NCBI GenBank assembly: GCA_005882765.1
Contig: VBDV01000111.1
Location: forward strand, 49,545 to 113,544
Source: Chloroflexota bacterium
GTDB taxonomy: Bacteria; Chloroflexota; Limnocylindria; P2-11E
Reading direction: 5' to 3'
DNA length: 64,000 bases
Position numbers and translations under genes: made by a program. Shown piece by piece: positions 414-62,730 of the stretch. Below the pieces are notes generated by a model. It ran no database searches and was not told the DNA's origin. It worked only from the letters and a program-made list of their open reading frames with translations. Numbering within the stretch: position 1 is the stretch's first letter; each line of letters starts with the position of its first letter.

Positions 414-872
414 ATGCCCGGATATGTGCCGTTGCACGCTCCGCACGAGCGAGCGGATCTTCCTTCGAGTTCTCGCCCTTCTCGTCGTGGTGTGAAGCGC
501 GTCCTCGTCGCCGACGACGACTCCGACATTTCGGCGTTGATCAAGGCGATGCTTGAGGAGCGTCTCCCTGTCACTGTCGATCACGTCACGAACGGAGCGC
601 TCGTTCTCGACCAGATCACCGCAACTCGTCCCGATCTCCTGATCCTGGATGTCTCGATGCCCGGTCTCAATGGGATCGACGTGTTCGATCTTCTGAGGGG
701 CAGCGCCCCGTCAGTGGACGTTCCAGTGCTCTTCCTCACTGCGGTGCCCGAGCGTGCTGAGCAGGCGTTCGCGCGATTCGGGATCAGCGACGTGATGGCG
801 AAGCCGTTCGAAGGTGATGCTCTCGTACGCCGCGTCGAGGATCTCCTCGCGCGCGCCGCGAAGGTCGCCTAG
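414..872 (+). CDS. single-domain response regulator (CheY-like receiver)
   Basis: VLVADDD...LILDVSMPGLNG...MAKPF receiver motifs. True start may be an internal start near 480. Confidence 0.7.
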   Translation: MPGYVPLHAPHERADLPSSSRPSRRGVKRVLVADDDSDISALIKAMLEERLPVTVDHVTNGALVLDQITATRPDLLILDVSMPGLNGIDVFDLLRGSAPSVDVPVLFLTAVPERAEQAFARFGISDVMAKPFEGDALVRRVEDLLARAAKVA

Positions 873-911
873 CACCGCGCTCGCGCCCGCCACCCGCTCT
901 GCGCCGAAGCG

Positions 912-2813
912 CTAGCCGGCGCTCTCTTCGGTTTCGGTCTGAAGTGGTGCGAGTCGGGGCCAGCGGCGGCGGACCGCCGCGGCGATCCCCTCAGCGTCGA
1001 GACCGTAATGCTTGCGCCACAGCTTCTGCGCGCCGTGGTCGACATGCTCGTCTGGGATTCCCAGGATTTCGAGATCGACTCTGGCTCCACGCTCCGCGAG
1101 AAGTTCACCGACCGCGGACCCGAACCCGCCAGCGATCACGTGCTCTTCGACAGTTACGAAGCGAGGGATCCGCGCGGCCAGCGAGAGGATCCGCTCTTCA
1201 TCGAGCGGCTTCGCGAAGCGCGCATTGACGACCGTGGCTTCGAGACCGTCGCGCGCTAGGATCTCCGCGGCCTCGAGCGCGGCGGCAACGGGATGGCCGT
1301 ACGCGAGGATCGCGACGCCGTCGCCTTCGCGGAGCGTCTCTGACACCCCGATCGGGATCTCGGCAAGCGGCGCGTCGAGCGCCACGCCGACGCCGGTGCC
1401 GCGCGGAAAGCGCAGTCCGATTGGCCCGCGCTTTGCGGCGGCGTGCCGGTACGCCGTCCAGACCATCTGGCGCAGCTCGGCCTCGTCTTTCGGCGCCATG
1501 AGCGTCATCCCCGGGAGGATGCGTAGGTATGCGATGTCGTACAGACCCTGGTGGGTCCTCCCGTCGTCGCCGACGATCCCGCCACGGTCCATCGCGAACA
1601 CCACTGAAAGGTCCTGCACCGCGACGTCGTGGACGACCTGGTCGAAGCCGCGCTGCAGGAACGTCGAATACACCGCGACGATCGGAACGATCCCCTGCGT
1701 CGCGAGCCCGGCGGCGAACGTCACGGCGTGCTGCTCGCAGATGCCGACGTCGAAGAGGCGCTCGGGAAATTCTCTGAAGAGTGGGAGCAGGCCCGTGCCG
1801 CCCGGCATTGCGGCGGTGATCGCGACCGCGCGCTCGTCCGCTTTCAAGACCTCGCGAACGGAGTCGGCGAAGACCGCCGTGTACTGCGGGGCCGTCGCTT
1901 TGGCGGAGCCGGTGGCCGAGACACCGTGCCACTTCACGTTGTCGTCCTCGGCCGGTCCGTAGCCGTGCCCCTTCTGCGTCTGCACGTGGACGAAGACGGG
2001 GCCCTCGGCGAAATCGCGAGCCTTCTCGAGGACTCCCTCGACCGCGAAGAGATCGTGGCCGTCGACGGGACCGAAGTACGTGAAGCCGAACTGCTCGAAG
2101 AGGATGTTCGGAATGAAAAGCGCCTTCAGGCTGGTGAAAATTCTGCGGCGCGCTTCCTCCGCCAGCTCCCCGCCGGGCATGTGCTCCAGGACCTGGCGGC
2201 CGATGTGCTTCGCACCCCGATACGGCTGGGCGGTGCGCAGCGCTTCGAGCATGCGCGAGACGGCGCCGACGTTCGGCGCGATGCTCATCCCGTTGTCATT
2301 CAGCACGACGATCACCCGCGTGCGCATGTGGCCGATGCTGTTCATCGCCTCGAAGGCCATGCCCGCCGTGAGCGCGCCGTCGCCAATGATCGCGACGACG
2401 TGGTTGTCGTCGCCCTTCAGGTCGCGGGCGACAGCCATACCCTGCGCGGCGGAGATCGAGGTCCCAGCGTGCCCCGCTCCAAACTGATCGTGCTCCGACT
2501 CCGATCGCGCGAGGAAGCCTGAGATCCCGCCGAACTGGCGAAGAGTGTCGAACCGTCCGCGTCGGCCGGTCAGCATCTTGTGCACGTACGCTTGATGCCC
2601 CGTGTCCCACACGAGCTTGTCGCGCGGGGAGTCGAACACTCGGTGAAGCGCGACCGTGAGCTCGACCGTGCCTAGGCTCGATGAGATATGGCCGCCGGTC
2701 TTCTGCACGCTGTCGACGGTGAACTCCCGGATCTCGCGGCACAGCGCGAGTAATTCCTCGCGATGGAGCAGCCGAAGGTCGCGGGGTTGCTGTATGCGGT
2801 CGAGCACACCCAC
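912..2813 (-). CDS. dxs: 1-deoxy-D-xylulose-5-phosphate synthase
   Basis: 633 aa. N-terminus MGVLDRIQQPRDLRLL...GHISSSLG, a TPP-binding GDG...N motif and transketolase-like C-terminal domains. Confidence 0.95.
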   Translation of the reverse strand: MGVLDRIQQPRDLRLLHREELLALCREIREFTVDSVQKTGGHISSSLGTVELTVALHRVFDSPRDKLVWDTGHQAYVHKMLTGRRGRFDTLRQFGGISGFLARSESEHDQFGAGHAGTSISAAQGMAVARDLKGDDNHVVAIIGDGALTAGMAFEAMNSIGHMRTRVIVVLNDNGMSIAPNVGAVSRMLEALRTAQPYRGAKHIGRQVLEHMPGGELAEEARRRIFTSLKALFIPNILFEQFGFTYFGPVDGHDLFAVEGVLEKARDFAEGPVFVHVQTQKGHGYGPAEDDNVKWHGVSATGSAKATAPQYTAVFADSVREVLKADERAVAITAAMPGGTGLLPLFREFPERLFDVGICEQHAVTFAAGLATQGIVPIVAVYSTFLQRGFDQVVHDVAVQDLSVVFAMDRGGIVGDDGRTHQGLYDIAYLRILPGMTLMAPKDEAELRQMVWTAYRHAAAKRGPIGLRFPRGTGVGVALDAPLAEIPIGVSETLREGDGVAILAYGHPVAAALEAAEILARDGLEATVVNARFAKPLDEERILSLAARIPRFVTVEEHVIAGGFGSAVGELLAERGARVDLEILGIPDEHVDHGAQKLWRKHYGLDAEGIAAAVRRRWPRLAPLQTETEESAG

Positions 2814-2831
2814 GTCGCGATACTAGCCGCG

Positions 2832-3560
2832 ATGTTCGATCTCTCTAAGCGCGCCGTAGTACTTACGGGCGCGACCGGAAATGTCGGGCCCGCCGTACTC
2901 CGTGCGTACCTCGAGCTGGGCGCCCACGTGGCGATACCGGTCCGAGAGGAGGCCAAGGGCGCCGCCCTGCGGGACTCGCTTGGTGACCTGGCCGGTACGG
3001 CAGAAGATCCGCGGATCCTCATGCGCGCCAGCGATCCAGGCGACGCCGCGGCGATGGAGGGCTTTGTCGAAGAGGTCCTTCGCACGTGGGGCCGTCTAGA
3101 CGTCGTCGCGAATCTCATCGGGGGATACGCCGCGTCGGACGCGGCCACCGGCGACCTCGCCGCCTACCGTCGCTACTGGGATCAGAAGGTGGCGACGATC
3201 GTGACTGCGACGACGGGGTGCCTGCGGCCGATGCGTGCGCGTGGCTACGGCCGCGTCGTGAACGTCGCCTCCACGGCCGCTCTCGAGGGAGAGAAGGGCG
3301 CCGCCGGCTACGCGATGGCGAACGCAGCGCTGCTTCGCTGGACGGAGTCGCTCGCCGAAGAAGTGAAACGCGAGGGGATCACTGCGAACTGCGTGCTGCC
3401 GCGCATCATCGACACGCCTGAAAACCGAGCCGCTATGCCCAAAGCCGATCCATCGCGATGGGCGACCGCGGTCGAGATCGCCGCGCTCGTCGTGTTCTTG
3501 TCTACGGACGAAGCGAGCGGGATTACTGGCACGGCGACACCGATAGTGGCTCGAACGTGA
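2832..3560 (+). CDS. SDR family NAD(P)-dependent oxidoreductase
   Basis: VVLTGATGNVG Rossmann motif and SDR core. The track ORF starts at 2763 and would overlap the dxs start, so the internal Met at 2832 is preferred. Confidence 0.8.
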   Translation: MFDLSKRAVVLTGATGNVGPAVLRAYLELGAHVAIPVREEAKGAALRDSLGDLAGTAEDPRILMRASDPGDAAAMEGFVEEVLRTWGRLDVVANLIGGYAASDAATGDLAAYRRYWDQKVATIVTATTGCLRPMRARGYGRVVNVASTAALEGEKGAAGYAMANAALLRWTESLAEEVKREGITANCVLPRIIDTPENRAAMPKADPSRWATAVEIAALVVFLSTDEASGITGTATPIVART

Positions 3561-3574
3561 TTCACAAGCGGCCG

Positions 3575-3700
3575 TGCGGGTGGCACGGGGGGCGGGTGAG
3601 CAGCGTCGGGGTCTTCTGAGCGAGCGGCCCCTAGACGGCGGTCCATAGCGATCCCACCGGGGCCGAGCGAAGAGGACCCCGGCGCTGCTCACCGCAAGCC
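3575..3700. repeat. Hairpin-forming intergenic repeat element, copy A
   Basis: Imperfect inverted repeat GCGGGTGAGCAGCGTCGGGGTCTTC ... GAAGAGGACCCCGGCGCTGCTCACCGC with a ~60-nt loop. The same sequence family recurs at 62255-62460 and partly at 30390-30440. Confidence 0.6.
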
Positions 3701-3764
3701 GCTACGCCCTCAAGGCCCCTGCCCGCACGGCACGGGACGGGAGCGCGTCTAGACTCCGTCGCCG

Positions 3765-4226
3765 GTGTCGCTGTTTGTTCTTGTGAAGTTTCTCCACGTT
3801 CTGCTTGCAATCATTGCGGTCGGATTCAACGCGACGTACGGCGTGTGGCTCGCGCGGGTTGCCCGCGAGCCGGTGCCCACGCAGTCCTTCGTGCTTCATG
3901 GCATCAAGCGACTCGACGACTGGTTTGCCAATCCCGCCTACGTGCTGCTCGCCGTGACTGGGGTGACGATGGTGTTCGTCGGCGAGCTGAGATTCACGAC
4001 GTTCTGGATCGCCGGCGGGATCGTGCTCTGGGCGATCGCGGTCGCGCTCGGCTTCTTCGTGTACACGCCGATGCTTCGTAACCAAATTCACGCGCTCGAG
4101 ACGGCCGGACCCGAGAGCGAAGACTACAGGCGCTACTCCGCGAACGCGCGCTTCCTCGGCATCCTGCTCGCCCTGATCGTTGTCGTGATCGTTTTTCTCA
4201 TGGTGACGAAGCCAGCGCTGTCGTAG
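3765..4226 (+). CDS. small integral membrane protein (DUF2269-like, 4 TM)
   Basis: 153 aa with four hydrophobic segments. No catalytic motif. Confidence 0.55.
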   Translation: MSLFVLVKFLHVLLAIIAVGFNATYGVWLARVAREPVPTQSFVLHGIKRLDDWFANPAYVLLAVTGVTMVFVGELRFTTFWIAGGIVLWAIAVALGFFVYTPMLRNQIHALETAGPESEDYRRYSANARFLGILLALIVVVIVFLMVTKPALS

Positions 4227-4797
4227 CCAGCGCCCGGGCCCACTCCGCGTATGCCTCCGCGGACGGATGCAACCCATCCGGCGCGATCATCCTTTTCCGC
4301 GCTTGCTCTCGCATGAGTGGGAACAGATCGATCCACGACCCGCCGGCGCGCTCGGCCTCCTCGCGCGCGATCGCGTTAAAGCGCTGGATCGCGCGGGCGA
4401 TGACACTCCCGTCGCCGAAGCCGGATCCCGCCGGCGACGATGACCAGTCAGGCTGTGGCAAGGCGACCACACGCGCGTCGGGTGCGTCGCTGCGAATGCG
4501 TTCGTGTATTGAGCGGAGCTGGCGGCGATACCGATCGCCGCTGTCGCCACGGACGACGTCGTTCGCGCCGATGAGCACGGTGATGAGCGTCGGACCGAAC
4601 GATGCGACGAGCGGCAGCTCATCGCGGATCAGGTCGTCTGTCGTGTACCCGTTCACGGCAGGGTTCTCGAGAACGACCTTCAGGCCTCGCTCCGTCCAGA
4701 GCTGCGTGAGGACGGCCGGAAAAGAGCGATCAGGCGTGGTGCCGGTGCCGATGGTGAACGAATCACCAAGCGCGAGGAATCTTTTGGGAATGATCAA
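4198..4797 (-). CDS. SGNH/GDSL-family hydrolase
   Basis: GDSFT block I, GAND block III and DGLHP block V. Confidence 0.8.
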   Translation of the reverse strand: MIIPKRFLALGDSFTIGTGTTPDRSFPAVLTQLWTERGLKVVLENPAVNGYTTDDLIRDELPLVASFGPTLITVLIGANDVVRGDSGDRYRRQLRSIHERIRSDAPDARVVALPQPDWSSSPAGSGFGDGSVIARAIQRFNAIAREEAERAGGSWIDLFPLMREQARKRMIAPDGLHPSAEAYAEWARALATTALASSP

Positions 4798-4820
4798 TTG
4801 TTCTAGTCTGGGAGAGCCCT

Positions 4821-30088: not shown

Positions 30089-30268
30089 ATGCCGGAGGTG
30101 CCCATAGATCGTCAGCTGCTCGAGCTCCTGGCCTGCCCCGATGAACACCATGCTCCATTGCGTGAGGTGGGGGACTTCCTGGTCTGCACGCAATGCCGCC
30201 GTCGCTTCCCGGTCAAGGACGGAATTCCAGTGATGCTCCTAGACGAGGCGCTGCCGCCCGCCGACTGA
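30089..30268 (+). CDS. Trm112-family small zinc-ribbon protein
   Basis: 59 aa. LLELLACP...C..C...FPV.DGIP is the Trm112/DUF343 pattern. Confidence 0.65.
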   Translation: MPEVPIDRQLLELLACPDEHHAPLREVGDFLVCTQCRRRFPVKDGIPVMLLDEALPPAD

Positions 30269-30389
30269 GCGCCTACGTATCGCAAAACTCGTAGCGCAGC
30301 GGGTCCTGTCCCGGGGTCGGGGTCGCGCGCTCGCCTACCGGTCCGCTTCCCACCACTTGGGACCGCGCGCCTGCGACGCGGCCGGTCAG

Positions 30390-30440
30390 CGGCTCGCGCG
30401 CAACCCGCTCCCCCGTGCCACCCGCTGCGCCTAACGGGTG
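30390..30440. repeat. partial copy of the intergenic repeat family (ACCCGCTCCCCCGTGCCACCCGC motif)
   Basis: Shares a 23-nt motif with 62414-62436 and, in reverse complement, with 3573-3590. Confidence 0.35.
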
Positions 30441-32774: not shown

Positions 32775-35700
32775 GTGCCAAAGCGAATCCTCATCGCGGA
32801 CGACCATCTCGCGGTACGCGAGGGCCTCCGCTCGCTCATCGATCCCGACCCTGACTTCAAAGTCGTGGGCGAGGCGTCGGACGGGAACGAGGCCGCCCGC
32901 AAGGCGCTTGAGCTCCGCCCGGACCTGATCGTCCTCGACAACTCGATGCCGGGCATGACCGGTCTCGAGGTCGCGCGGATGCTCCGCGACAACCTCCCGC
33001 AGACCAAGATCGTCTTCCTCACGCTCGACCCCGGCATCCGCGACCTTGCCCTCGCGACAGGCGCGGCTGCGCACGTCTCAAAGGACCAGCCCCCGCAGGA
33101 AATCATGCGGGTGGTCCGTGCCGCGGTCGGCATAACGACCCCGAAGGCTCAAGCCACCCAGCCATCGAGCGCGCAGGCCAAGCTCGCGGAGCTTCTCATC
33201 TCGGAGAAGCTCCTCACCTCGCGCCAGATCCAGGACCTCGACCGCTTGCGCACCGGGCGGCAAACCCTTTCGAACGCGATCCTGCGCTCGGGCCTCGTCG
33301 ACGAGGAGTCGTTCGCGAACGCGGTCGCTCGTGTGAGCGGCCATCCGGTCACCTCGCTTCGCGTCGCGCCCGAGGCAGCGGTCATCCGTCAGCTGCCGCG
33401 TCGCTTCTGCGAGCTTCGCGCCGTTGCGCTCGTTGAGTTCGGACGCACGAGCGCGACCCTCGCCATGGCCGACCCGCTCGATGAAGCGGCGGAGCGCGAA
33501 GCCAAGGACATGCTCGGCGAGATTGGCCTCACGGTCGTCACCGCGACGCTCACCGAAGTTCGTGATGCGATCCACCGCGCGCATGCGCCTGCTCTCGTGC
33601 CGCTTGTCGCGGTACCGACGCTTCCGCAGAAGCGGACACGACGTCGGCTCGCGCTCGTCGCTGTGCTCGCTGCGGCGCTCCTGTTGATCGCGACCAGCAC
33701 GGGGGTTCTCTTGAACCAGACCACCGTCGTCGCGGCGCGGGCGAATCTCACGATCTTCCAGGGCACGGTCGACGTCCGACACGGATCTGCGAATTTTGTC
33801 GCGGCCTCGACGAACGACCTCGTCGAGCAGGGCGACACGATTCGCACCGCCTCGGGCGGGCACGCCGCGCTCACCTTCTTCGACCGGTCACTCATAGTCC
33901 TCGAGCCCGACACGCAGGTCGTTCTCGAAACGCTCCGCACGGTTGCGGGCGGGCGCGACATTGACCTCGTCCTCCGTCAGGTGACTGGCAAGACGTGGCA
34001 CGTCGTCGCGCACAGCATCGGCGATGGCGGGCGCTACGAGGTGCTCACCCCGACGTCGACGAACACCGTCCAGGGCACCGCGTTCCAGGTGCGCATCGAC
34101 ACGGTAGGTCGGACTGTCGTCAGCACCACCGACGGCACGGTGCGGACGTTCGGCACCGACACCGCGGTTCCGCCGGTCCTCGTCGCCGCAGGTATGCAGA
34201 GCACGGTCTCGCAGACCGGGCCGTCCGCAGCCTCGCCGATCACCGACCCGACGCTGACCTTCACGTTCGAGGACGCGACTCAGGCTTTCGTCGTGAACGC
34301 GGCCGGGCAAGCTGCCGGAACGAAGGAAGGAGCGACTCTTCGCTACATCCCCGGGTCCGAGATCGCGCAGGACAACGGCCGCGTCGTCGTGACGATCCCG
34401 GGTTCGGACGCGGGACGATTCAGCTCGATCGTTGCACCGAAGGGCGATGTCGCGCAGGTACGCATCGCGACCGTGCTGAATCAGGGCGGAAACGCAACCA
34501 CCGTCACCGAGACAAGGCCGGTCGAAAACGGCGCTGCTAAGGGCGGCGTCACCGTCACCGGCACAACGATCGTGATGCTGAGCGACTCGGCAGCTAAGGC
34601 CGCGACTGCACCGATCGTCGCCAGCGCGCCGCCGTCTCCGACTCCTTTCAACCCGCTCACCCTCATCTCGCAGGGTCCGCAGGGCAATCTCGGACCTGCC
34701 GGTCCGGTTGGTCTGAATGGCGAGCCGGGCGCGCAGGGTCCTCCCGGCCCGGCGGGTCCGACCGGCGCGACCGGCGCTCCCGGCACAGCGGGAGCTCGCG
34801 GCGTTGCCGGATCTGCGGGCGCGGCCGGGGCTGCGGGCGCCGACGGCGTTGCCGGTGCGAACGGAGCTCCTGGCTCTCAGGGTGCGGCAGGCGCTGCGGG
34901 TCCCGCGGGCCTCGCTGGGGCGGCTGGTCCTGCGGGCGCGACCGGTCCAAGTGGTGCTGTTGGCGCGACCGGAGCGACCGGCCCGACCGGGGCGAATGGG
35001 TTGGACGGCGCCACAGGTGCGTCGGGTGCCAATGGACTCGACGGGGCAACCGGTGCGACCGGTGTTACCGGTGCGACCGGTAACAATGGTGTTGACGGGG
35101 CTACTGGCGCGACGGGTGCCACCGGACTCGATGGTGCCACCGGTGCTGTCGGTGCGACTGGCGCGATCGGCGCAGTCGGGCCGACCGGTCCACAAGGTCC
35201 GACGGGTGCGACGGGTGCGACGGGCGCGGCCGGTAACAATGGTGTTGACGGCGCGACCGGCGCGACTGGCGCGACCGGTGCAACGGGCGCGGTTGGCGCG
35301 ACCGGTGCGCAGGGCCTGACGGGAGTTACCGGTGCAACGGGTGCCACCGGTAACAATGGTGTTGACGGGGCGACCGGAACAACCGGTGCGACCGGAGCGA
35401 CTGGATCTGTCGGCGCGATTGGACCAACTGGTCCCCAAGGCCCAACCGGAGCAACTGGTGCGACTGGCCCCACCGGGGCAGCCGGCGCTAACGGAACAAA
35501 CGGCGCGACGGGGGCGACCGGTGCAACTGGTGCAGCAGGCGCCAACGGAGCCAACGGGGCGACCGGTGCAACAGGCGCAACCGGCGCGGCCGGCGCAAAC
35601 GGAACAAATGGTGCGACTGGTGCGATTGGTGCGACTGGCGCCACCGGGGCAGCCGGCGCCAACGGCGCAAACGGCGCGACGGGCGCGACCGGTGCAACCG

Positions 35701-38700
35701 GAGCTGCCGGTGCAGCCGGTGCCGTTGGACCAACAGGTCCTCAGGGTCCGACCGGCGCAACGGGCGCGACCGGTGCAGCAGGCGCGAACGGCACAAACGG
35801 CGCGACGGGCGCGACAGGTGCAACTGGCGCTGCTGGTGCCGTCGGCGCGGTAGGGCCGACGGGTCCGCAAGGTCCCACCGGCGCGACCGGAGCTCCGGGC
35901 GCAAACGGTAGCAACGGCGCCACCGGTGCTACGGGCGCAACCGGTGCGACCGGTGCAGCTGGCGCGAATGGGACGAACGGCGCTACCGGCGCCACCGGTG
36001 CGACAGGCGCCGCAGGCGCAAACGGATCTAACGGTGCGACCGGCGCAATCGGCGCCACCGGCGCAACTGGTGCGGCGGGCACGAACGGCGCCACAGGGGC
36101 TACTGGTGCGACGGGTGCTACCGGTGCCGCCGGCGCAAACGGATCGAATGGTGCGACCGGCGCCACGGGTGCAACTGGTGCCGCCGGAGCAGCTGGCGCT
36201 GTCGGTCCGACAGGTCCGCAGGGTCCGACCGGCGCGACGGGCGCGACTGGAGCGACCGGTGCTGCGGGTGCCAACGGATCTAACGGTGCCACCGGTGCGA
36301 CGGGCGCCACCGGCGCGACCGGTGCCGCCGGTGCGAATGGCTCGAACGGCGCAACGGGCGCCACCGGTGCAACTGGTGCAGCAGGGGCGAATGGTTCGAA
36401 CGGCGCGACCGGTGCGACGGGGGCAACCGGAGCTGCCGGTGCAGCCGGTGCCGTTGGACCAACAGGTCCTCAGGGTCCGACCGGCGCGACTGGCGCTACC
36501 GGCGCGACGGGTGCGCCTGGGGCGAACGGGACGAACGGCGCCACGGGTGCAACTGGTGCAACGGGTGCGACAGGCGCCGCAGGCACAAACGGATCGAACG
36601 GCGCGACCGGTGCCACTGGTGCGACCGGCGCAACTGGCACCGCGGGGGCGGCGGGTGCCGTTGGCCCAACTGGTCCTCAGGGTCCGACCGGTGCAACTGG
36701 GGCGACTGGCGCGACTGGTGCCGCAGGTGCAAACGGATCCAACGGTGCGACGGGTGCGACGGGCGCAACCGGTGCAACTGGCGCCGCTGGCGCGAACGGG
36801 ACGAACGGCGCGACCGGTGCGACTGGCGCCGCCGGCGCAAACGGATCGAACGGTGCGACCGGCGCCACGGGCGCAACCGGTGCCGCCGGAGCAGCTGGTG
36901 CTGTCGGTCCGACCGGTCCGCAGGGTCCGACCGGCGCGACGGGCGCGACTGGAGCGACCGGTGCCGCGGGTGCGAACGGATCTAACGGCGCGACCGGTGC
37001 GACAGGCGCAACTGGTGCCGCCGGAGCCGCAGGCGCTGTCGGTCCGACAGGTCCTCAGGGTCCGACCGGTGCGACGGGCGCGACCGGTGCGACGGGTGCT
37101 GCAGGATCGAACGGCGCCGTCGGTGCGACGGGCGCGACCGGTGCGACGGGTGCGGCGGGCTCAAACGGCGCCGTCGGTGCGACCGGCGCGACCGGTGCGA
37201 CGGGTGCTGCAGGATCGAACGGCGCCGTCGGCGCGACGGGCGCAACTGGCGCGACGGGTGCTGCAGGATCGAACGGCGCCGTCGGCGCTACGGGCGCAAC
37301 TGGCGCGACGGGTGCTGCAGGATCGAACGGCGCCGTCGGCGCGACAGGGGCTACTGGCGCGACCGGTGCCGCGGGCGCCAATGGATCGAACGGCGCGACG
37401 GGCGCCACCGGCGCGACTGGTGCTGCTGGCGCCGCTGGTGCGGTCGGCCCAACAGGTCCTCAGGGTCCGACTGGAGCGACCGGCGCAACTGGTGCAACTG
37501 GTGCGGCTGGCGCAAACGGGTCAAACGGTGCGACTGGTGCAACGGGAGCCACCGGCGCAGCAGGTGCCGCCGGTGCGGCCGGAGCGGTCGGCCCCACCGG
37601 TCCTCAGGGTCCAACGGGTGCAACCGGGGCCACGGGCGCGGCCGGCGCAAACGGATCGAACGGTGCCACGGGCGCAACTGGCGCGACCGGCGCTGCAGGT
37701 GCCGCAGGCGCTGTTGGTCCAACAGGTCCTCAGGGTCCGACCGGTGCGACAGGCGCGACCGGTGCAACGGGTGCTGCCGGAGCGAACGGAGCGGTCGGCG
37801 CGACTGGTGCAACAGGTGCTACCGGTGCGACAGGCGCAGCGGGCTCAAACGGGGCGGTCGGCGCCACCGGCGCGACGGGTGCGACGGGTGCAGCAGGATC
37901 GAATGGAGCCGTCGGTGCAACAGGTGCTACCGGCGCGACAGGTGCGGCGGGCTCAAACGGCGCGGTCGGCGCCACCGGCGCGACCGGCGCAACTGGTGCG
38001 ACCGGTGCAACTGGTGCAACTGGTGTGACGGGTGCGACGGGTGCTGGGCTGAGTGATGTTCAGCAGGACGGCGTCTCGAAGGGCACGCAGAACACGCTGA
38101 ACTTCACGAATGGCTTTACTGTCACGAACACCGGCTCGAAGATCCAGATCGACGGATCCGGTTTCGTCCACACGACGGGCACCGAGTCAATTGCCGGCGA
38201 CAAGACGCTGAGCGGTAACACGACGTTCACAGGCACGACGACCGTGAACAACGCGACCACGACCGGAACGGCCTCTTCGATCAGCACCGGCAACGGCCTC
38301 ACCACCGGTCAAGCGCTCAACGTGAGCACCGGCAGCTCGACATTCACGAACGGGAACACCCAAGACAACACCAACGCGACGCGAGGTTTCTTCTACGGCG
38401 GCGCGTCGAACTCGTACGCAGGCGCAAACACGTTCTCGAGCACCGGCAACTTCACCGGAACCCTCGTCGCGCTCACCGCGGACCAGACCACCGCCGGAAC
38501 GGTCCTCGGCATCAGCGCGCAGAACCTCACCACTGGCAAGGCCCTCGACGTCTCGCTCGGCACCCTCTACTCAGGACAGACCGATACGGTCGGCGGATAC
38601 ACGATCGGCGCGGTCAACGTGCGCGCGCAGTCCTTCACCGGGAACGTCTTCAACGTCTCGGCGTCCGGTGCCGCCTCCTCGACGGGCAACCTCGCAAACC

Positions 38701-40232
38701 TGTCAAGCACTCAGCTCGCAGGAAATGTGCTGAAGGTGACCGGCAACAGCCTCACGACCGGCACGGCGATCAACGTCTCGGCGACCGGGCTCGCGGCGGC
38801 CGGCAAGGCCGTCAGCGTCGTGGTCGGGACGGCTGGCACGCCGATCTTCGTGAACACCGCGAACCTGTACTCGGGCAACCTCGTCGACCTGCAGGTGAAC
38901 TCAGTCTCCAAGTTCAGTGTCGACCAGACCGGTCAGCTCACGCTCGCGGGGAATCTCCTCGTTCGAGGCGGGACGATCACCGGGCCAACGAGCGGCACCT
39001 TCACGATCGACAACGGCAGCGCGCAGCCGATCGCCATCGGCACGACGACCGCGACAACCATCAACATCGGCCAGTCGGGCCAGGCGCAGAACCTGCTCGG
39101 CAACGCGACCGTCTCCGGTACCCTCGGCGTGACCGGAAACTTCTCGGTGAACACCAACAAGTTCAACGTGACCGCGGCGAGCGGTAACACGACCGTCGCC
39201 GGCACCCTCGGCGTGACCAGCGACCTCACGGTGAACACGAACAAGTTCATCGTCACGGCACTGACCGGAAACACGACGGTGGGCGGCACCCTCTCGGTGC
39301 TCGGCGCGACCATCACGGGCCCGACGAGCGGCACGTTCAGCATCGACGGTGGCTTCGCCGGCGGCGCGCTCAACGTCGGTACCACCGCGAACACGGGCAC
39401 CGTCACGATCGGCCGCAGCGGTCAGACGCAGGCGCTCGCCGGTAACGCCACGGTCGTAGGCACGATCGCAGCGGGCGGCAACATCAGCACGACTGCCGGC
39501 GGCATCACGATCACCGGCAACAGCACGATTGCCGGCCTCACTTCGAACGGCGCCGGCAATGCGCCGACGTTCCAGGCCGCGGCGGGCACGGCGTCGAACG
39601 TGGTCGTGCTCACGACCGGCGCTACGAGCTACACCCCGAGCGCGGGCACGCTCGCGATCCTCATCGAGTGCGTGGGCGGCGGCGGTGGTGGCGGCGGTGC
39701 GCAGGGCAACGCCACGCCGAGCGCCTCGGCTGCCGGCGGCGGCGGCTCGGGCGCCTACTCCGTGGCGTACCTCGCGTCGCCCAGCGGCTCGTACACCGTG
39801 GCGATCGGTGCTGCGGGCGCAGGCGGCAACGGCACCAGCGGCGGCGCCGGCGGCACGACGACGTTCGGCACCTCGCCGAACTTCAAGTGCAATGCCAACG
39901 GTGGCTCAGGCGGGCTCAATATGGCTCTCGGCACGACAGTGACGTACCAGGCGGGCGGCGCGGGCGGGACCGTGACGGCCTGCACGCCGGCGTGCCTCAT
40001 GCAGTCGACCGGTGGCCCGGGCGAGTACGCGGTGCGTGCCTCGGGGAGCATCTCAGTGGCCGGGAGCGGTGGCAACAGCCACCTTGGCGGCGGCGGTTAT
40101 CTCGCCGGCACGGGCGCAGGAGGCGCGGGCACCTTCGGCGGCGGCGGCGGCGGCGCGAACTCGAACACCACGGCCAACAACGTCGGCGGCGCCGGCGGCG
40201 CCGGGGTGATCCGCATCACCGAGTACAAGTAA
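32775..40232 (+). CDS. giant 2485-aa membrane protein: REC – T2SSE_N-like – TM – FecR – collagen-like (~375 G-X-X triplets) – T/G/N-rich fibre-like region – C-terminal poly-Gly domain
   Basis: A single uninterrupted ORF. N-terminal IADDH...[13 protein letters not shown] NarL-type receiver (aa 1-120). A GspE-N-like domain (aa ~135-265). TM at aa ~291-313. FecR-like domain (TIFQGTVDV...GDTIRT). G-X-X from aa ~634 to ~1760. Then a β-rich repetitive region, and a C-terminal GGGGGGGG...[15 protein letters not shown]. Confidence 0.85.
34674..38050 (+). repeat. ~3.4 kb of coding tandem repeat DNA (GGN-GCN-ACN/GGN... encoding G-X-X triplets) with higher-order ~45-aa periodicity
   Basis: Periodicity visible directly, e.g. 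recurring ...[45 protein letters not shown]... blocks. Confidence 0.85.
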
Positions 40233-54765: not shown

Positions 54766-56706
54766 CTACGCCACGCCGGCGCCGGCCTCGCCCTCGATGC
54801 GGAGCTCCAGGGAGGTGCCGCCACTGCGCTGTAAGGCGAAGCGCGGCTGTTCTAGGGTCGCGATCGCGGACCAGAGCTCGTCCACCAGCATGGGTACACG
54901 GAGTCCGACCGCGAGCGTCGCGACGCCTCCCCTGAAGTCACGCACGTAGAGCGTACGGACCTGCGCCAGCGACTGAATGCGCCGCTCGATGTCCACGAGC
55001 CGGGCGAACGACGGTACGGGCGAGAGCATGAGCACAATGTTGCTGGTCGGAGCCGCCGGCTCCTCCCTCTCGAGAGTGACTTGCTCCGGTTCCGTTACCC
55101 CTTGGGCCGGTTCGCGCTCCACCACGGTCAATTCGGGGGGCGCCGGAGAGGTCTCGACGGCCTTTTCTGTCGGTCTGGAGAAGACCTCATCCTCCTCCAC
55201 GACTGGCGGCGGCTGCGTCGCTCTGGACGCCAGAGCGGCCCGCGCCGCCTCCTGGGCAGCACGCGCGGCCGTCTCGGCGACGCGCGCGGCCTCGGCGATA
55301 CGGAGGGCCTCGACGGTGGCGGCGCGCCGCACCTCCTCGGCCGCAAGCCGGGCCCCCTCGGCGCGGCGCGCCTCTTCCTCGCGGCGCTGCTGGTCGCGAC
55401 GCTCCTCTTCTTGCCTCCACTGGGTCGCGCGCCGCTGCTCCTCCTCGCGCCATCTCGCGGCTCGCTGTTCCTCGTCCTCACGCCGTTGCTGCTCGAGACG
55501 CACCGCGTCCGCGACGCGGGCTTCGTCGGCGGCTCGGCGCGCTTCCTCGGCCGCACGCGCCGCGGTCGTGGCGCGCTCCACCTCCTGAGCCGCGCGCTCC
55601 GCGTCGGCGGCGCGGTCGGCCCCGGCCGCGCGGGCGGCCTCCTGTGCGGCGCGCATCGCCTCTTCTGCGGCGCGCACGGCCTCCGCGGCCCGCTGCGTCT
55701 CGCCGGCGCGATCGGCCTCCGCGGCGCGGGCCGCCTCCTGTGCGGCGCGCATCGCTTCCTGCGCGGCACGAGCGGCCTCAGCCGCGCGCTGGGCTTCGAC
55801 CGACCGATCCGCTTCGGCCTGCTGGTGCGCGAGTCGCTGCGCTTCCGCGAGCTTCCGCGCCTCGTCGGCGGCGCGAGCCGCCTCTTCGGTCGCGCGCTGC
55901 GCCTGCTCCGCGACGCGAGCCGCTTCTGCGGCGCGCTCCGCCTCCGCGGCGCGCTGCGCCTCGAGAGCGCGACGCGCTTCCTCCTGGGCCGAGCGCGCCT
56001 CGTCCTGTGCAACGCGCGCCTGCTCCTGCGCGGTCTTCGCCTGCGCCGCGGCGGCGTTGGCCTCGCGGGCCGCGTCCGCGACCGTTCCCGCTTGACGACG
56101 GATGTCCTCGAGGAGCTCGGTGAAGACACCGCGCAGCGCGTCGGCCGCGAGCGCGCGCGACTCGGCGGTGGTCTCCTCGGGCGCCTTCTCAGGCGCGGCA
56201 GCCGATTCGCGGCGTGGTCCGCGGAGCGCGGAAAAGCCGCTCCGCCGGTTCGACGCGATCTCGTCGACGAGGCCGTCGCGCTCTTCACGGAGCCGCTCGA
56301 TCTCTTTGATCAGCATCTTCCGCTCATCTCGGGCCTGCTCGAGGATCTGCTGCGCAGCGTTCTCGGCTCGGGCGCGGATCTCGTGAGCGGCTCGCAGCGC
56401 ACCGGACAAGGCGTCGCGCACGGTGGCGTCGAATTCTTCGTACACCGCGACACGCTTGCGCGCCGCATCAAGCTCCGATTCGAGCGAGCCGACGCGCTTG
56501 GTGAGCTCGCTGACACGATCGGAGAGCGCGCCGATGATGTCTCCGGACGCGCCTAGACCTCTGGGCCCCTCGGACACGCGGTCGCCCTCCAAATGCTCGC
56601 TTCTCTGCCCACTTCCCCGCGTGTGGCGCAGAGCGTATACGACTGCGGCCGGGAAGGGCATCATCCGCGCATCACGCGGCCAAAGGTCTTGCTCGTCGTG
56701 GGGCAC
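54766..56706 (-). CDS. DivIVA-domain protein with a ~300-aa Ala/Glu/Arg coiled-coil and a C-terminal ~85-aa globular domain
   Basis: N-terminal DivIVA-like segment (IIGALSDRVSELTKRVGSLESELD...). Long AEAARAAQEA repeats. Start ambiguous, as the first Met overlaps the divergent gene. Confidence 0.6.
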   Translation of the reverse strand: MPHDEQDLWPRDARMMPFPAAVVYALRHTRGSGQRSEHLEGDRVSEGPRGLGASGDIIGALSDRVSELTKRVGSLESELDAARKRVAVYEEFDATVRDALSGALRAAHEIRARAENAAQQILEQARDERKMLIKEIERLREERDGLVDEIASNRRSGFSALRGPRRESAAAPEKAPEETTAESRALAADALRGVFTELLEDIRRQAGTVADAAREANAAAAQAKTAQEQARVAQDEARSAQEEARRALEAQRAAEAERAAEAARVAEQAQRATEEAARAADEARKLAEAQRLAHQQAEADRSVEAQRAAEAARAAQEAMRAAQEAARAAEADRAGETQRAAEAVRAAEEAMRAAQEAARAAGADRAADAERAAQEVERATTAARAAEEARRAADEARVADAVRLEQQRREDEEQRAARWREEEQRRATQWRQEEERRDQQRREEEARRAEGARLAAEEVRRAATVEALRIAEAARVAETAARAAQEAARAALASRATQPPPVVEEDEVFSRPTEKAVETSPAPPELTVVEREPAQGVTEPEQVTLEREEPAAPTSNIVLMLSPVPSFARLVDIERRIQSLAQVRTLYVRDFRGGVATLAVGLRVPMLVDELWSAIATLEQPRFALQRSGGTSLELRIEGEAGAGVA

Positions 56707-59341: not shown

Positions 59342-62140
59342 ATGGCAATCGCTGACATCGCGGAAGTCTCTGTTGAGCGCGCGGAGCCGAAAGGCCTTCG
59401 GATCGACCGCCGTTTCACTCGCGAGGGCACCCACCCGTACGACGAGATCGAGTGGGAGCGCCGCGACTCGGCAATCCCGGGTGAGACCGGCAACGTCTTC
59501 GAGCAGAAGGCCGTCGAGGTCCCGAAGTTCTGGTCGCAGACGGCCACGAACGTCGTCGCGTCGAAATACTTCCGCGGCAAGCTCGGCTCGCCCGAGCGTG
59601 AGTCAAGCGTTAAGCAGATGGTCGATCGCGTCGTCGACACCATCGCCCGCGCCGGTTTCGAGGGCGGCTATTTCGCGAGCGCTTCAGATCGCGACGCCTT
59701 CGCCGACGAGCTCAAGTACCTCATGGTCCACCAGTACGCCTCGTTCAACTCGCCGGTGTGGTTCAACATCGGAGTGGAGGGAGTTCCCCAACAGGCGAGC
59801 GCGTGCTTCATCCTCTCGGTCGAGGACGACATGCACTCCATCCTCGACTGGTTCCGTGACGAGGGGATCATTTTCAAGGGCGGGTCCGGCTCGGGCGTGA
59901 ACGTCTCACGGATCCGGTCGCAGAAGGAGAACCTCTCCGGCGGCGGCTTCGCCTCCGGTCCGGTGTCGTTCATGCGCGGTGCCGACTCGGTCGCCGGCTC
60001 GATCAAGTCGGGGGGCACCACGAGGCGCGCCGCGAAGATGGTCATCCTCGACGCCGACCACCCTGATCTCCACGAGTTCATCTGGTGCAAGGCCAAAGAA
60101 GAAAAGAAGGCGTGGGCGCTCGGCGAGGCGGGCTACGACATGAGCCTGAACGGGGAAGCCTGGCAGTCGATCCAGTTCCAGAACGCGAACAACTCCGTGC
60201 GCGTGACCGACGAGTTCATGAAGAAAGCTCAGACCGACGAGGACTGGAGTCTCACCGCGCGGATCGGCGGGAACGTCCTCGAGACGCTGAAGGCGCGTGC
60301 GCTTTTGAGGGAGATCGCGGAAGCCGCATGGCAATGCGGGGATCCGGGCATGCAGTTCGACACGACGATCAACGACTGGCACACCTCTCCGGCGAGTGGA
60401 CGGATCAACGGATCGAACCCGTGCAGCGAGTACATGAGCATCGACGACTCGGCGTGCAATCTCGCGTCGCTCAATCTGCTTCGCTTCGTGCACAGCGACG
60501 GCGAGTTCGACGTCGAACGCTTCCGGGCCGCCGTCGAGATCGTCTTCACGGCGCAGGAGATCCTCGTCGGCCACTCCGACTACCCGACCGCGAAGATCGC
60601 CGAGAACGCGCGCTCCCACCGTCAGCTCGGTCTGGGGTACGCAAACCTCGGCGCGCTCCTCATGCAGCGCGGGTTGCCGTACGACTCGAACCAGGGCCGT
60701 GCCTATGCCGCCGCGGTGACCGCACTCATGACCGGTGCGGCGTACTCGCAGTCCGGTCGGATCGCGGAAGCAGTGGGGCCGTACGAGGCGTACCCGAAGA
60801 ACAAGGACGCGCACGACCGGGTCATCCAGATGCACCGACTGCACGCATACCGCATCCGGGACGAGCTCCTCCCCGCGAGTCTTCTTTCGGCGGCGCGTCA
60901 GGCCTGGGACGACGCGGTCGCGTTCGGGCGGCCCGCGGGATATCGCAACGCGCAGGCATCGGTCCTCGCGCCGACGGGAACGATCAGCTTCATGATGGAT
61001 TGCGACACGACCGGCGTTGAGCCGGACATCGCGCTCGTGAAGTACAAGAAGCTCGTCGGTGGCGGGATGCTGAAGCTCGTCAACGGGAGCGTCCCCACGG
61101 CGCTACGGCGCCTTGGGTACAGCGACACCGAGTCCGGCGCCATCACCACCTACATCGAGCAGTACGGCACCATCGAAGGTGCCCCCGGCATCAAGGACGA
61201 GGATCTCCCGGTCTTCGACTGCGCGTTCAAGCCGCAGAACGGCGAGCGCACGATCCACCACATGGGCCACATCAAGATGATGGGTGCGGTCCAGCCATTC
61301 ATCTCCGGTGCGATCTCGAAGACCGTGAACCTTCCCGAGACCGCGACCATCGACGATGTCACCGAGGCGTACGTCGAGGCGTGGAAGCACGGGCTCAAGG
61401 CCATCGCCGTCTATCGCGACGGAAGCAAGAAGGTCCAGCCCGTCAACACGACCAACAAAGAGAGCAACGCCAAGGCCGTCGAAACGGTCGTCGAGCGCAT
61501 CGTCGAGGTCACGCGGCCGCAGCGTCGCCGCCTCGCCGACACGCGGGCGTCGCTCACGCACAAGTTCTCGATCGAGGGTCACGAGGGATACATCACCGTC
61601 GGGCTGTTCGAGGACAACACTCCGGGTGAGCTCTTCGTCACCATGGCGAAGGAAGGTTCGACCCTGTCGGGCATGATGGACGCGTTCGCGACGAGCGTGT
61701 CGCTGCTCTTCCAGTACGGCGTTCCGCTCTCGCACCTCGTCGAGAAGTTCGGGCATATGCGTTTCGAGCCCGCCGGTTGGACCGGCAATCCCGAGATCGG
61801 TTTCGCGAAGTCGATCGTCGACTACGTCTTCCGCTGGTTGGGGAACCGTTTCCTATCCGAGCCCGACCGCGCGGCGCTCGGGCTTGTCCGCACGACCGAG
61901 GTCGCCGACGCGACGTCACAGCTCGAGCTTCTGAATCGCGTTGTACAGCTCGCGACACCCGAAGTGCCGGCCGCGAACGGCAACGGGCACGCCGTCGCCC
62001 CCGTCCCCGACGCCCCCGGCTACCGACGACTCAATTCCACACCCGACGCGCCCCCCTGCCCGCGCTGCGGCTGGCTCACCGTTCGAAGCGGCACCTGCCA
62101 CAAGTGCGAGAACTGTGGAGAGACGACCGGGTGTAGCTGA
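59342..62140 (+). CDS. nrdJ: class II adenosylcobalamin-dependent ribonucleotide reductase
   Basis: 932 aa. NPCSEY active-site Cys loop, a B12-dependent RNR core and a C-terminal CxxC...CxxC zinc ribbon. Confidence 0.95.
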   Translation: MAIADIAEVSVERAEPKGLRIDRRFTREGTHPYDEIEWERRDSAIPGETGNVFEQKAVEVPKFWSQTATNVVASKYFRGKLGSPERESSVKQMVDRVVDTIARAGFEGGYFASASDRDAFADELKYLMVHQYASFNSPVWFNIGVEGVPQQASACFILSVEDDMHSILDWFRDEGIIFKGGSGSGVNVSRIRSQKENLSGGGFASGPVSFMRGADSVAGSIKSGGTTRRAAKMVILDADHPDLHEFIWCKAKEEKKAWALGEAGYDMSLNGEAWQSIQFQNANNSVRVTDEFMKKAQTDEDWSLTARIGGNVLETLKARALLREIAEAAWQCGDPGMQFDTTINDWHTSPASGRINGSNPCSEYMSIDDSACNLASLNLLRFVHSDGEFDVERFRAAVEIVFTAQEILVGHSDYPTAKIAENARSHRQLGLGYANLGALLMQRGLPYDSNQGRAYAAAVTALMTGAAYSQSGRIAEAVGPYEAYPKNKDAHDRVIQMHRLHAYRIRDELLPASLLSAARQAWDDAVAFGRPAGYRNAQASVLAPTGTISFMMDCDTTGVEPDIALVKYKKLVGGGMLKLVNGSVPTALRRLGYSDTESGAITTYIEQYGTIEGAPGIKDEDLPVFDCAFKPQNGERTIHHMGHIKMMGAVQPFISGAISKTVNLPETATIDDVTEAYVEAWKHGLKAIAVYRDGSKKVQPVNTTNKESNAKAVETVVERIVEVTRPQRRRLADTRASLTHKFSIEGHEGYITVGLFEDNTPGELFVTMAKEGSTLSGMMDAFATSVSLLFQYGVPLSHLVEKFGHMRFEPAGWTGNPEIGFAKSIVDYVFRWLGNRFLSEPDRAALGLVRTTEVADATSQLELLNRVVQLATPEVPAANGNGHAVAPVPDAPGYRRLNSTPDAPPCPRCGWLTVRSGTCHKCENCGETTGCS

Positions 62141-62191: not shown

Positions 62192-62234
62192 GCCCGGGCA
62201 CTCCCTGCTCCCCTGGGGTGCCCGGGCTTTTTTT
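62192..62234 (+). terminator. rho-independent terminator downstream of nrdJ
   Basis: GCCCGGGCAC-(17-nt loop)-GTGCCCGGGC followed by T7. Confidence 0.75.
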
Positions 62235-62254
62235 GTCTGAATCGCGGAACGCCT

Positions 62255-62460
62255 GAGCGGTGTGCGTGGGTCCTCCGTCGGGCGGTGAGCAGCGCCGGGG
62301 TCCTCCGTCGGGCGGTGAGCAGCGCCGGGGCCGAGCGAAGAAGACCCCGGCGCTGCCCTCGGTGCAGACCGCGATCCCACGAGGGCCGCCCGGTCCGCTC
62401 GCTCAGAAGACCCGACGCTGCTCACCCGCTCCTCCGTGCCACCCGCACACACCCCGCGAA
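62255..62460. repeat. intergenic repeat element copy B, including an exact 2 x 30-bp tandem direct repeat (62271..62330)
   Basis: TCCTCCGTCGGGCGGTGAGCAGCGCCGGGG occurs twice in tandem. The flanks match copy A in both orientations (GGGGCCGAGCGAAGAAGACCCCGGCGCTGC; CGCTCGCTCAGAAGACCCGACGCTGCTCACCCGC). Confidence 0.6.
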
Positions 62461-62730
62461 TGTTCCTTCTGCGATCCTTGGCTCGCCGCATTTACGCATT
62501 GCTAACTAGTCGGAATGAAATAGCTCGGCTGTTAGGAGTGTCGCGTAGGAGACAGACGTAGTAGTTGGTAACGTCTCAAATCAGTCGCCCACTGACCGGA
62601 ACGTGGCTGACACTTCGTTCGTCTAGGTATGTGAAGAGTTCGTACCGAGCAAGCGTGCGAATGCTCCACGGCACAACCCTTGCTCGAACAGTCGACGCGC
62701 CAATTGGTGGGCGCAGGGGAGGCGGACAGC

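Follow-up and report, generated by a model that had tools for sequence, protein, structure and literature searches.

Nested-palindrome repeats with a shared frame and exchangeable cores in Candidatus Limnocylindria (Chloroflexota)

The window analyzed here, a 64,000-nucleotide stretch of a Chloroflexota contig, contains three intergenic loci that share hairpin-forming sequence. Copy A begins 16 nucleotides past the stop codon of an SDR gene (2763-3560, plus strand) and is followed by a gene for a DUF2269 membrane protein (3765-4226, plus strand). Copy C lies between the ends of a Trm112-like gene (ending at 30268, plus strand) and a histidine-kinase gene (ending at 30444, minus strand). Copy B lies downstream of nrdJ (59342-62140, plus strand), from which it is separated by an intrinsic terminator, and is followed by the conserved leader of a VanW/PG_binding_4 gene. 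This terminator, a hairpin with a run of seven T residues (62193..62236, plus strand), is separate from the element and is kept in all relatives, whether the element is present or absent.

A preliminary description of the window had placed all copies in intergenic spacers downstream of genes and treated them as one family. Both points stand for A, B, and C, and every sequence quoted in that description was found again at its position. The arm 19-mer GGTGAGCAGCGYCGGGGTC has six matches in the window with up to three mismatches, all of them in A and B and in both orientations; shuffled sequence leads one to expect 0.18. The sequence CCGTGCCACCCGC occurs exactly in A (minus strand), C (plus strand), and B (plus strand), with 0.42 expected even if one mismatch is allowed. 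Local alignment matches the reverse complement of A to B over 58 nucleotides of near identity, and matches C to each of the other two over 23 nucleotides. The three loci are genuine copies of one dispersed repeat family, far beyond chance.

Copy A (3571..3731, plus strand) is a canonical element of what is here called type 1, and extends beyond the span originally delimited (3575-3700). It scores 92.6 bits on the plus strand in an nhmmer search with the family core profile. Read inward from its complementary flanks (GCCGT/ACGGC), it consists on the plus strand of a 5′ frame (3576-3597); the type-1 core (3598-3690); and a long 3′ module (3691-3726) that terminates in a remnant of the 3′ frame, CCCTGCCCGC. 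The core in turn contains four subelements: the P1 helix, GAGCAGCG/CGCTGCTC (3598-3605 and 3683-3690); the 5′ arm, TCGGGGTCTTCTGAGCGAGCGGCCCC (3606-3631); a variable apical region (3632-3658); and the 3′ arm, GGGGCCGAGCGAAGAGGACCCCGG (3659-3682). Folded as RNA, copy A forms one long rod-like hairpin of −118.3 kcal/mol (z = −7.7), a stability that no shuffle out of 200 reached. Folded as DNA, it reaches −58.6 kcal/mol (z = −4.9). Orthologous copies are present on five related contigs (L132, L224, L169, L223, and L203).

Copy C had been taken for a partial copy, and this does not hold. It is a full-length element (30294..30430, minus strand) with both halves of the frame placed around a different inner hairpin. 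On the minus strand, its layout is GCGCA, GCGGGTGGCACGGGGGAGCGGGTTG, 78 nucleotides, ACCCCGACCCCGGGACAGGACCCGC, and TGCGC: complementary flanks (GCGCA/TGCGC) that enclose a 5′ frame (30402-30425), an inner hairpin unrelated to that of type 1 (30324-30401), and a 3′ frame (30299-30323). Its RNA fold reaches −92 kcal/mol (z = −4.7), so that the hairpins expected from the inverted repeats are borne out for C as for A. The inner hairpin of C defines a second core type, found also on contigs L169 (4658-4784) and L246. (Window positions 872-912 were considered as an empty site relative to L169; the extra DNA there consists of a gene together with a type-2 element and is not a clean insertion.)

Copy B (62264..62446, minus strand) is a rearranged type-1 element that gives only partial matches of about 23 bits to the family profile. 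Read along the plus strand, it opens with a diverged, reverse-complemented 3′ frame (62264-62273). An exact tandem of two 30-nucleotide units follows, TCCTCCGTCGGGCGGTGAGCAGCGCCGGGG (62271..62330; units 62271-62300 and 62301-62330 in the register first proposed), which Tandem Repeats Finder (TRF) confirms as 2.1 copies of period 30 with 100% matches (62268-62330). This tandem duplicates the outer part of the 3′ arm, and occurs also on contigs L001, L002, and L003. Next come the 3′ arm (62331-62356) and the apical region (62367-62387), both in forward orientation, and finally the reverse-complemented 5′ arm (62395-62425) and 5′ frame (62426-62446). Comparison with canonical orthologues shows which parts have moved. 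The 5′ frame and 5′ arm are kept (62395-62446, minus strand), and the apical region together with the inner 3′ arm is inverted (62331-62387). Forward-oriented arm and apex sequence thus stands amid a reverse-complemented frame, and so the center of B is inverted relative to its frame.

Beyond the frame of B, the palindrome continues as a locus-specific outer inverted repeat, GAATCGCGGAAC.../...GTTCCTTCTGCGATCC (62239..62477), and the stretch 62239-62477 as a whole folds to −156 kcal/mol. Outer arms of this kind, GGATCGCGGA.../...TCCGCGATCC, also surround the element in relatives with a filled site (L244, L246, L227, L241, and L130). A co-evolution test of the two outer arms at the nrdJ locus, within a lineage, gave a mixed signal.

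Across the family, an element is a rod-like hairpin of 140-190 bp with two parts: an outer frame and an inner core hairpin. The frame reads 5′ GCGGGTGGCACGGGGAGCGGGTT ... 3′ CCCG.AGCCGGGACAGGACCCGC and is often lengthened by a few locus-specific complementary bases. Type-1 copies, when oriented like A, have the consensus GCGGGTGGCACGGGGAGCGGGTTGAGCAGCGTCGGGGTCTTCTGAGCGAGCGGCCCCTGGCCGGCGGTCCATCGCGATCCCACGAGGGGCCGAGCGAAGAAGACCCCGGCGCTGCTCACCGCCCG.AGCCGGGACAGGACCCGC. Some type-1 copies, A included, carry the additional 3′ module AGCCGCTACGCGGTCAGGGGCCCCTGCCCCTTGGACAGGACCCGC. The core, about 95 nucleotides long, is almost invariant, and the outer stems decay fast. Within the core, conservation in the arms CGTCGGGGTCTTCTGAGCGAGCGGCCCC and GGGGCCGAGCGAAGAAGACCCCGGCG is complete or reaches at least 90% across the 102 listed copies; the exact 21-mer by which copies were collected inflates apparent conservation near the search site, and the 5′ arm lies outside that search pattern. 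The apical 28 nucleotides vary. Orientation is well defined, as the core profile gives 90-100 bits on the forward strand and about 20 bits on the opposite one.

Complementarity between the arms is imperfect, with GAGCGAG opposite AGCGAA. At least three core types share the one frame: type 1, in A and B; type 2, in C; and type 3, seen only in relatives (L176, L208, L227, L241, and L244). A GCGAGC-like motif on both arms, on the same strand, is common to all three. To judge from the sequences, these facing motifs would pair as tandem G.A, with C-G pairs on either side. By-eye comparison of the internal loop with hammerhead, K-turn, and hairpin-ribozyme cores found no fit, in agreement with Rfam.

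The preliminary description had supposed a dispersed family and proposed that further copies be counted. Soil metagenomes scanned with the exact core 21-mer GCCGAGCGAAGARGACCCCGG yielded at least 120 matching contigs. After removal of duplicates and rearranged forms, at least 102 distinct canonical copies remained, which group by flank similarity into at least 38 locus clusters (about 38 loci). The element thus occupies many different loci and, among related populations, has stayed at the same one. A scan of genome contigs with the 19-mer arm returned 117 stretches, of which five are real and the rest chance matches in GC-rich genomes. Full-length copies (88-96% identity over about 120 nucleotides) are present in the Chloroflexota metagenome-assembled genomes (MAGs) BPF3-00-01_bin_2 and CF_143, as well as in a MAG labeled "Udaeobacter". 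About 0.9 Mb of flanking contig sequence contains no second independent type-1 copy, adjacent multimers aside, which puts the likely density at some tens of copies per genome. Viral contigs gave no match to the 21-mer or to two other family patterns, and a plasmid collection gave none to copy A.

The host is indicated by NrdJ, which was found on JGI and ENA soil-metagenome contigs. Its close homologues are labeled Chloroflexi/Chloroflexota or Candidatus Limnocylindria; one relative with 95% NrdJ identity is BPF3-00-01_bin_2 (GCA_038040345.1). The Limnocylindria, once called Ellin6529, are uncultured Chloroflexota that abound in soil. Some labels disagree: a few nearly identical proteins and contigs with the repeat are assigned to Verrucomicrobiae, Ca. 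Udaeobacter, or Bathyarchaeia, which are read as binning errors. The data show a superfamily of hairpin repeats specific to this Chloroflexota lineage and built modularly from frame and core.

The history of one site can be followed in the nrdJ-vanW spacer of relatives found through NrdJ. Three of these (L130, L227, and L244) have a canonical type-1 element, antisense like B. In L246 (93% NrdJ identity), a type-2 element occupies the same frame, and the GGTGT/ACAC flanks and the outer GGATC... arms are unchanged. In L241 (91%), it is a type-3 element that fills this frame, again between GGTGT/ACAC flanks. An additional type-3 element lies about 100 nucleotides downstream in both L227 and L244. 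The spacer is without an element in L245 (89%), L242 (88%), and L243 (79%), which are too diverged for insertion boundaries to be drawn; close relatives yielded no clean empty site. Moreover, the type-2 arms of L246 recur in window copy C, which occupies another locus; this implies replacement of the core and not divergence in place.

The same locus is also rearranged repeatedly. L181, a 96% identical relative, has at least four tandem copies of the other arm along with a partial duplication of the 3′ half, and contig L003 breaks inside the repeat to continue into a different copy. Together with the inversion and tandem in B, these arrays and this break mark the locus as a hot spot at which a long palindrome undergoes slippage and inversion. 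The first suggestion of recent slippage at B is thereby strengthened: one arm is duplicated in the window, and the other has been multiplied in L181.

Family-wide comparisons lead in the same direction. Core identity is 93% between orthologous copies (within clusters) and 92% between paralogous ones (between clusters). It is independent of flank identity, which over 300 nucleotides of mostly coding flank ranges from 64% to 98% (mean 75-79%). The outer frame is only 57-65% identical, and so evolves faster than the flanks. Two type-1 core haplotypes are distinguished by three markers over about 45 nucleotides: A / CC / G and G / CGA / A. The markers are strongly linked: the first pair in 47 plus 25 copies, with 13 recombinants, and the second pair as well (Fisher p = 8e-4). 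Nevertheless, the core haplotype varies within 12 of 22 orthologous locus clusters. L145 and L187, like window copy B, have a core that runs opposite to its frame.

Linked haplotypes that switch within loci, and different cores within one frame, imply that cores are exchanged or homogenized between copies and not simply inherited. Elements persist at orthologous sites across species-level divergence and are absent there in more distant relatives, and their cores are exchanged, inverted, and homogenized while frame and flanks diverge along with the locus. About 1 Mb of sequence contained no unoccupied frame, although the observed density of elements makes that absence uninformative.

Placement was examined with a codon-usage gene caller built for this analysis, a crude tool that misses the SDR gene and a subtilase. 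It allowed classification of 28 of the 38 listed clusters, 7 of 38 being left unclassified because a gene was called over the element. The spacers are convergent at 13 loci, tandem with the element in sense at 6, tandem with the element antisense at 5, and divergent at 4. Elements are enriched at gene 3′ ends, without preference for orientation, which extends to the family the position first noted for the window copies. The suggestion that they might act as terminators fares less well. No T runs follow A or stand in the 3′ flanks of about 100 copies, and B and its orthologous elements lie past the T-tract terminator of nrdJ, antisense to both neighboring genes, which argues against a simple terminator role at that locus.

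These results are best read as a REPIN/BIME-like non-autonomous palindromic repeat that evolves in concert, and this is probably what the family is. Presumably, the conserved arms would then be the recognition site of an enzyme that acts in trans on one folded strand. A candidate is a RAYT/HUH-type single-strand nuclease or another structure-specific recombinase; frame-guided gene conversion may offer an alternative route of copying. Copy B would be a decaying member, its center inverted between its own arms and one arm duplicated through slippage. Any benefit to the host, such as 3′-end protection of read-through transcripts, would be secondary.

The conservation of the core is stronger than selfish DNA predicts. 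A near-invariant stretch of 95 nucleotides, between flanks only 65-80% identical across lineages, would fit a functional RNA or protein-binding site too. The main rival therefore holds that the core is a functional structured RNA, either a multi-copy small RNA or a cis-acting module of untranslated regions, which host selection keeps invariant (for example, as a rod-like RNA with K-turn-like internal loops of tandem G.A to which a protein binds). On this view, the repeats would be copies of a gene and not selfish DNA. This explanation is unlikely, but it would account for both the extreme conservation of the core and its strand asymmetry. The arms are nearly invariant in the 102 listed copies, beside flanks at 75-79% and outer stems at 57-65%, and GCGAGC recurs on both arms in all three core types.

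The strand asymmetry emerges from folding. RNAalifold predicts 26 core pairs, among which one-sided changes are nearly all to G.U on the strand in A orientation. In each of the 38 listed clusters, its predicted fold is more stable than that of its complement by 8-10 kcal/mol, although the core barely varies and these clusters come close to a single observation. In the P1 helix, 39 cells are G.U and 19 are A.C. The predicted asymmetry points to a single-stranded form of one strand, be it RNA or DNA. P1 also has about 17 compensatory cells against more than 80 mismatches, a pattern of decay and not of maintained pairing.

Other observations speak against a functional RNA. Tandem contexts show no bias in orientation, with sense and antisense almost equal. 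Copy A has neither a sigma-70-like promoter nor a T-tract terminator, and the element at the nrdJ locus lies antisense beyond a terminator. Three unrelated cores swap at one site, a site that is empty in some relatives. Finally, Rfam 15 gave no matches at its gathering scores in the window, L227, L244, L246, or L241, and none to any core type; copy A drew only chance matches to microRNA and CRISPR-DR families (E > 0.3).

A bolder proposal treats the frame as a docking site for hairpins and the cores as exchangeable non-coding hairpin cassettes, moved and flipped by a structure-specific single-strand recombinase or nuclease that recognizes the tandem-G.A arms. In a variant, the cores would be a new class of rod-like protein-binding RNAs. 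Such a system must be considered speculative and rather improbable.

Much less probable is a classical MITE: a deletion derivative of an insertion sequence with a DDE transposase, mobilized through terminal inverted repeats and making target-site duplications. The inverted-repeat build and the length of 140-190 bp would fit. So would the frame ends GCGGGTGGCACGG ... CCGTGCCACCCGC, which in some copies (L137) are perfect 13-bp inverted repeats, and the polymorphism for presence and absence at the nrdJ spacer. However, conservation runs the wrong way, with the ends most variable (57-65%) and the center least so (92-93%), the reverse of the MITE pattern. The bases that abut the frame are locus-specific inverted complements and not direct repeats: the two flanks of the same element pair over 2.5 contiguous bases on average, and non-self flanks over 0.9. 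At five loci of the CGCGTTGCGGGT...ACCCGCAACGCG subfamily, the flanks contain no target-site duplication or direct repeats. Nor was a recurrent transposase found nearby. The 72 neighboring proteins are diverse housekeeping products; three is the highest count for any Pfam family, and the recurrent families include no transposase. None of ten small open reading frames in the window encodes a transposase. Thus, of the REP/MITE-like character first suggested, the REP-like placement is upheld, and the MITE hallmarks are missing.

That the elements are look-alike ordinary gene-end hairpins, such as the terminators without U tracts of high-GC bacteria, or an artefact of metagenome assembly, agrees with their enrichment at gene 3′ ends and with the switch of copy in L003 (assemblers struggle at such sites), but is scarcely credible and already contradicted by a near-identical core of about 95 nucleotides at some 38 or more unrelated loci, which is beyond convergence, by the same arrangement in independent JGI, ENA, and NCBI MAG assemblies, and by the separate, conserved T-tract terminator in front of B.

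The family has several uses. It is a sequence marker that breaks metagenome assemblies in Limnocylindria and can expose mis-binned contigs. Its roughly 40 loci, in many lineages, form a natural data set for the turnover, inversion, and slippage of long palindromes. It also offers a test case for the long-term homogeneity of REP-like elements, in which the contrast between conserved core and decaying frame tells copied sequence apart from inherited sequence. Should a dedicated enzyme indeed recognize the tandem-G.A arms, it would represent a new single-strand DNA-processing activity, and hairpin cassette exchange, if real, would be a system without a described counterpart.

The closest kin, by type, are REPINs, BIMEs, and those REP dimers that are nested in larger palindromes. 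REPINs are REP doublets that form hairpins and go with RAYT transposases (Bertels & Rainey 2011, PMC3116915); their persistence at orthologous positions is documented in the literature. The shared features are several: two conserved inverted arms of about 30 nucleotides around a less conserved spacer; intergenic location in tens to hundreds of copies, without target-site duplication; and long persistence at orthologous positions, in a population that behaves as a homogeneous "master sequence". There are also differences. The Limnocylindria arms do not take the form of short palindromes that leave a GTAG tag unpaired, and the 72 neighbors and ten small window reading frames revealed no RAYT. 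A second conserved palindrome, the frame, surrounds the core, and this one frame accommodates at least three unrelated cores that replace one another at a single site.

REP dimers inside longer palindromes are known from Thermomicrobium roseum (Chloroflexi), Anabaena variabilis, and Halothiobacillus neapolitanus (Di Nocera, De Gregorio & Rocco 2013, PMC3733652). REPs also favor sites downstream of open reading frames and between convergent genes, and some CGTC families are without a dedicated transposase (PMC3733652). The Limnocylindria 5′ arm likewise contains CGTC, but the units are much longer, with arms of about 34 nucleotides in place of the 8-9-bp stems and 4-5-nucleotide loops of those REPs. 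A REP unit is a stem-loop of 20-40 nucleotides whose terminal GTAG or CGTC tag stays unpaired (PMC3733652); the Limnocylindria arms do not themselves form short stem-loops (8-13 bp). Nor is the CGTC a terminal unpaired tag: it occurs only in the 5′ arm, base-paired within the stem through a conserved T.G wobble (94 of 100 copies), and the second arm has CGCC. The consensus is devoid of GTAG. Since its arms do not consist of short stem-loops with a tag, the family falls outside the classical REPs; its poorly conserved ends and lack of target duplication place it outside the classical MITEs as well.

BIMEs of enterobacteria and RIMEs of rhizobia are modular mosaics of palindromic units, intergenic and arranged differently in different strains. 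The Limnocylindria repeats share all of these features, but their modules are concentric and not side by side. To our knowledge, there is no sequence relationship with either group. ERIC (or IRU) and Correia (or NEMIS) elements are imperfect palindromes of 100-170 bp that yield long RNA hairpins when transcribed. Here too there is likeness, with a center strikingly conserved across species, occurrence in either orientation, and a long RNA hairpin if transcribed. Correia elements have defined terminal inverted repeats and a TA duplication, and ERIC elements are not known to have frame-and-core modularity. We know of no sequence similarity to ERIC or Correia elements, and the host phylum differs.

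Integron attC sites are imperfect palindromes that are recognized in folded single-stranded form, are located downstream of genes, and take part in exchange at a fixed site. An imperfect palindrome, position downstream of genes, and exchange at a fixed site are found in Limnocylindria as well. In contrast to attC, the center is conserved and the ends are variable. The family is not one of attC sites, for its copies are dispersed singly across about 0.9 Mb of flanking sequence, without cassette arrays or a nearby integrase, and the consensus ends have no GTTRRRY and no R or L boxes.

Literature searches retrieved no description of this family, nor of any repeat families in Limnocylindria; sub-sequences of the core retrieved only chance matches in papers on animals. 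The repeats are an uncharted superfamily of non-coding, nested-palindrome intergenic repeats of Candidatus Limnocylindria, an uncultured soil lineage of the Chloroflexota. What is new relative to the systems above is that copies have the outer frame in common and can differ, by exchange, in the hairpin inside it.

Multimeric forms of the hairpin repeat occur elsewhere among the type-1 elements: some are dimers of adjoining elements, and others are arrays built of partial units, with a single arm repeated in tandem. Examples lie on four contigs (L228:3748-3941; L181:649-1014; L190; and L186), and multimerization is therefore not peculiar to copy B, the rearranged type-1 element with an exact 2 x 30-nt tandem in the window. 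At one cluster of loci (contigs L032, L142, L161, and L199), the 3' flank of the element carries a conserved motif, ACATACGACAC(T/C)GGCGTAGTATGTG, which may form a separate small hairpin or serve as an operator.

The spacer between the response-regulator gene and dxs differs in length between the window and the related contig L169. In the window it spans only 40 nt (872-912), whereas L169 contains about 550 nt of additional DNA (4250-4800), made up of a small minus-strand gene and a type-2 element (4658-4784).

Some contigs and proteins that are 97-98% identical to those of the window's Chloroflexota lineage, or that bear the repeat of this lineage, have been assigned to unrelated phyla: contigs L005 and L086, in the MAG 'Candidatus Udaeobacter sp.' SMAG_U13855; protein P0011, as 'Verrucomicrobiae'; and protein P0012, as 'Bathyarchaeia'. 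These labels probably reflect mis-binning. As a lineage marker, the hairpin repeat could reveal mis-binned contigs.

Two open reading frames in the window are themselves repetitive. The first, very large by our own gene calls (32775-40232, plus strand; 2485 aa), is full of GGN-NNN-NNN repeats with a 9-nt period, and is the main contributor to the repeat and tandem-repeat output for the window; judged by this pattern, it appears to encode a collagen-like protein of Gly-X-Y repeats. The second (54766-56592, minus strand) contains internal repeats of 21, 42, and 96 nt rich in GCG and GCC codons, a composition that suggests an Ala/Arg-rich repetitive protein. Its orthologue on contig L001 has no Pfam entry on record.

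In several close relatives, NrdJ is interrupted by a LAGLIDADG intein of about 400 aa (homologues P0041, P0043, P0044, P0053, P0069, P0073, P0080, and P0086; contigs L242 and L244). The window NrdJ (932 aa) is without this intein.

Finally, a conserved leader of about 200 nt (62500-62730, plus strand; ...GACAGACGTAGTAGTTG.TAACGTCTCAAATCAGTCGCC...GACCGGAACG...GACACTTCGTTCGTCTAG...) lies 5' of the VanW/PG_binding_4 gene. It is found also upstream of the VanW gene in seven related contigs (L227, L241, L242, L243, L244, L245, and L246), and is kept even where NrdJ identity is only 79% and the repeat element is absent. The leader looks like a cis-regulatory RNA, but a search of Rfam returned zero matches to it, even at E <= 1.
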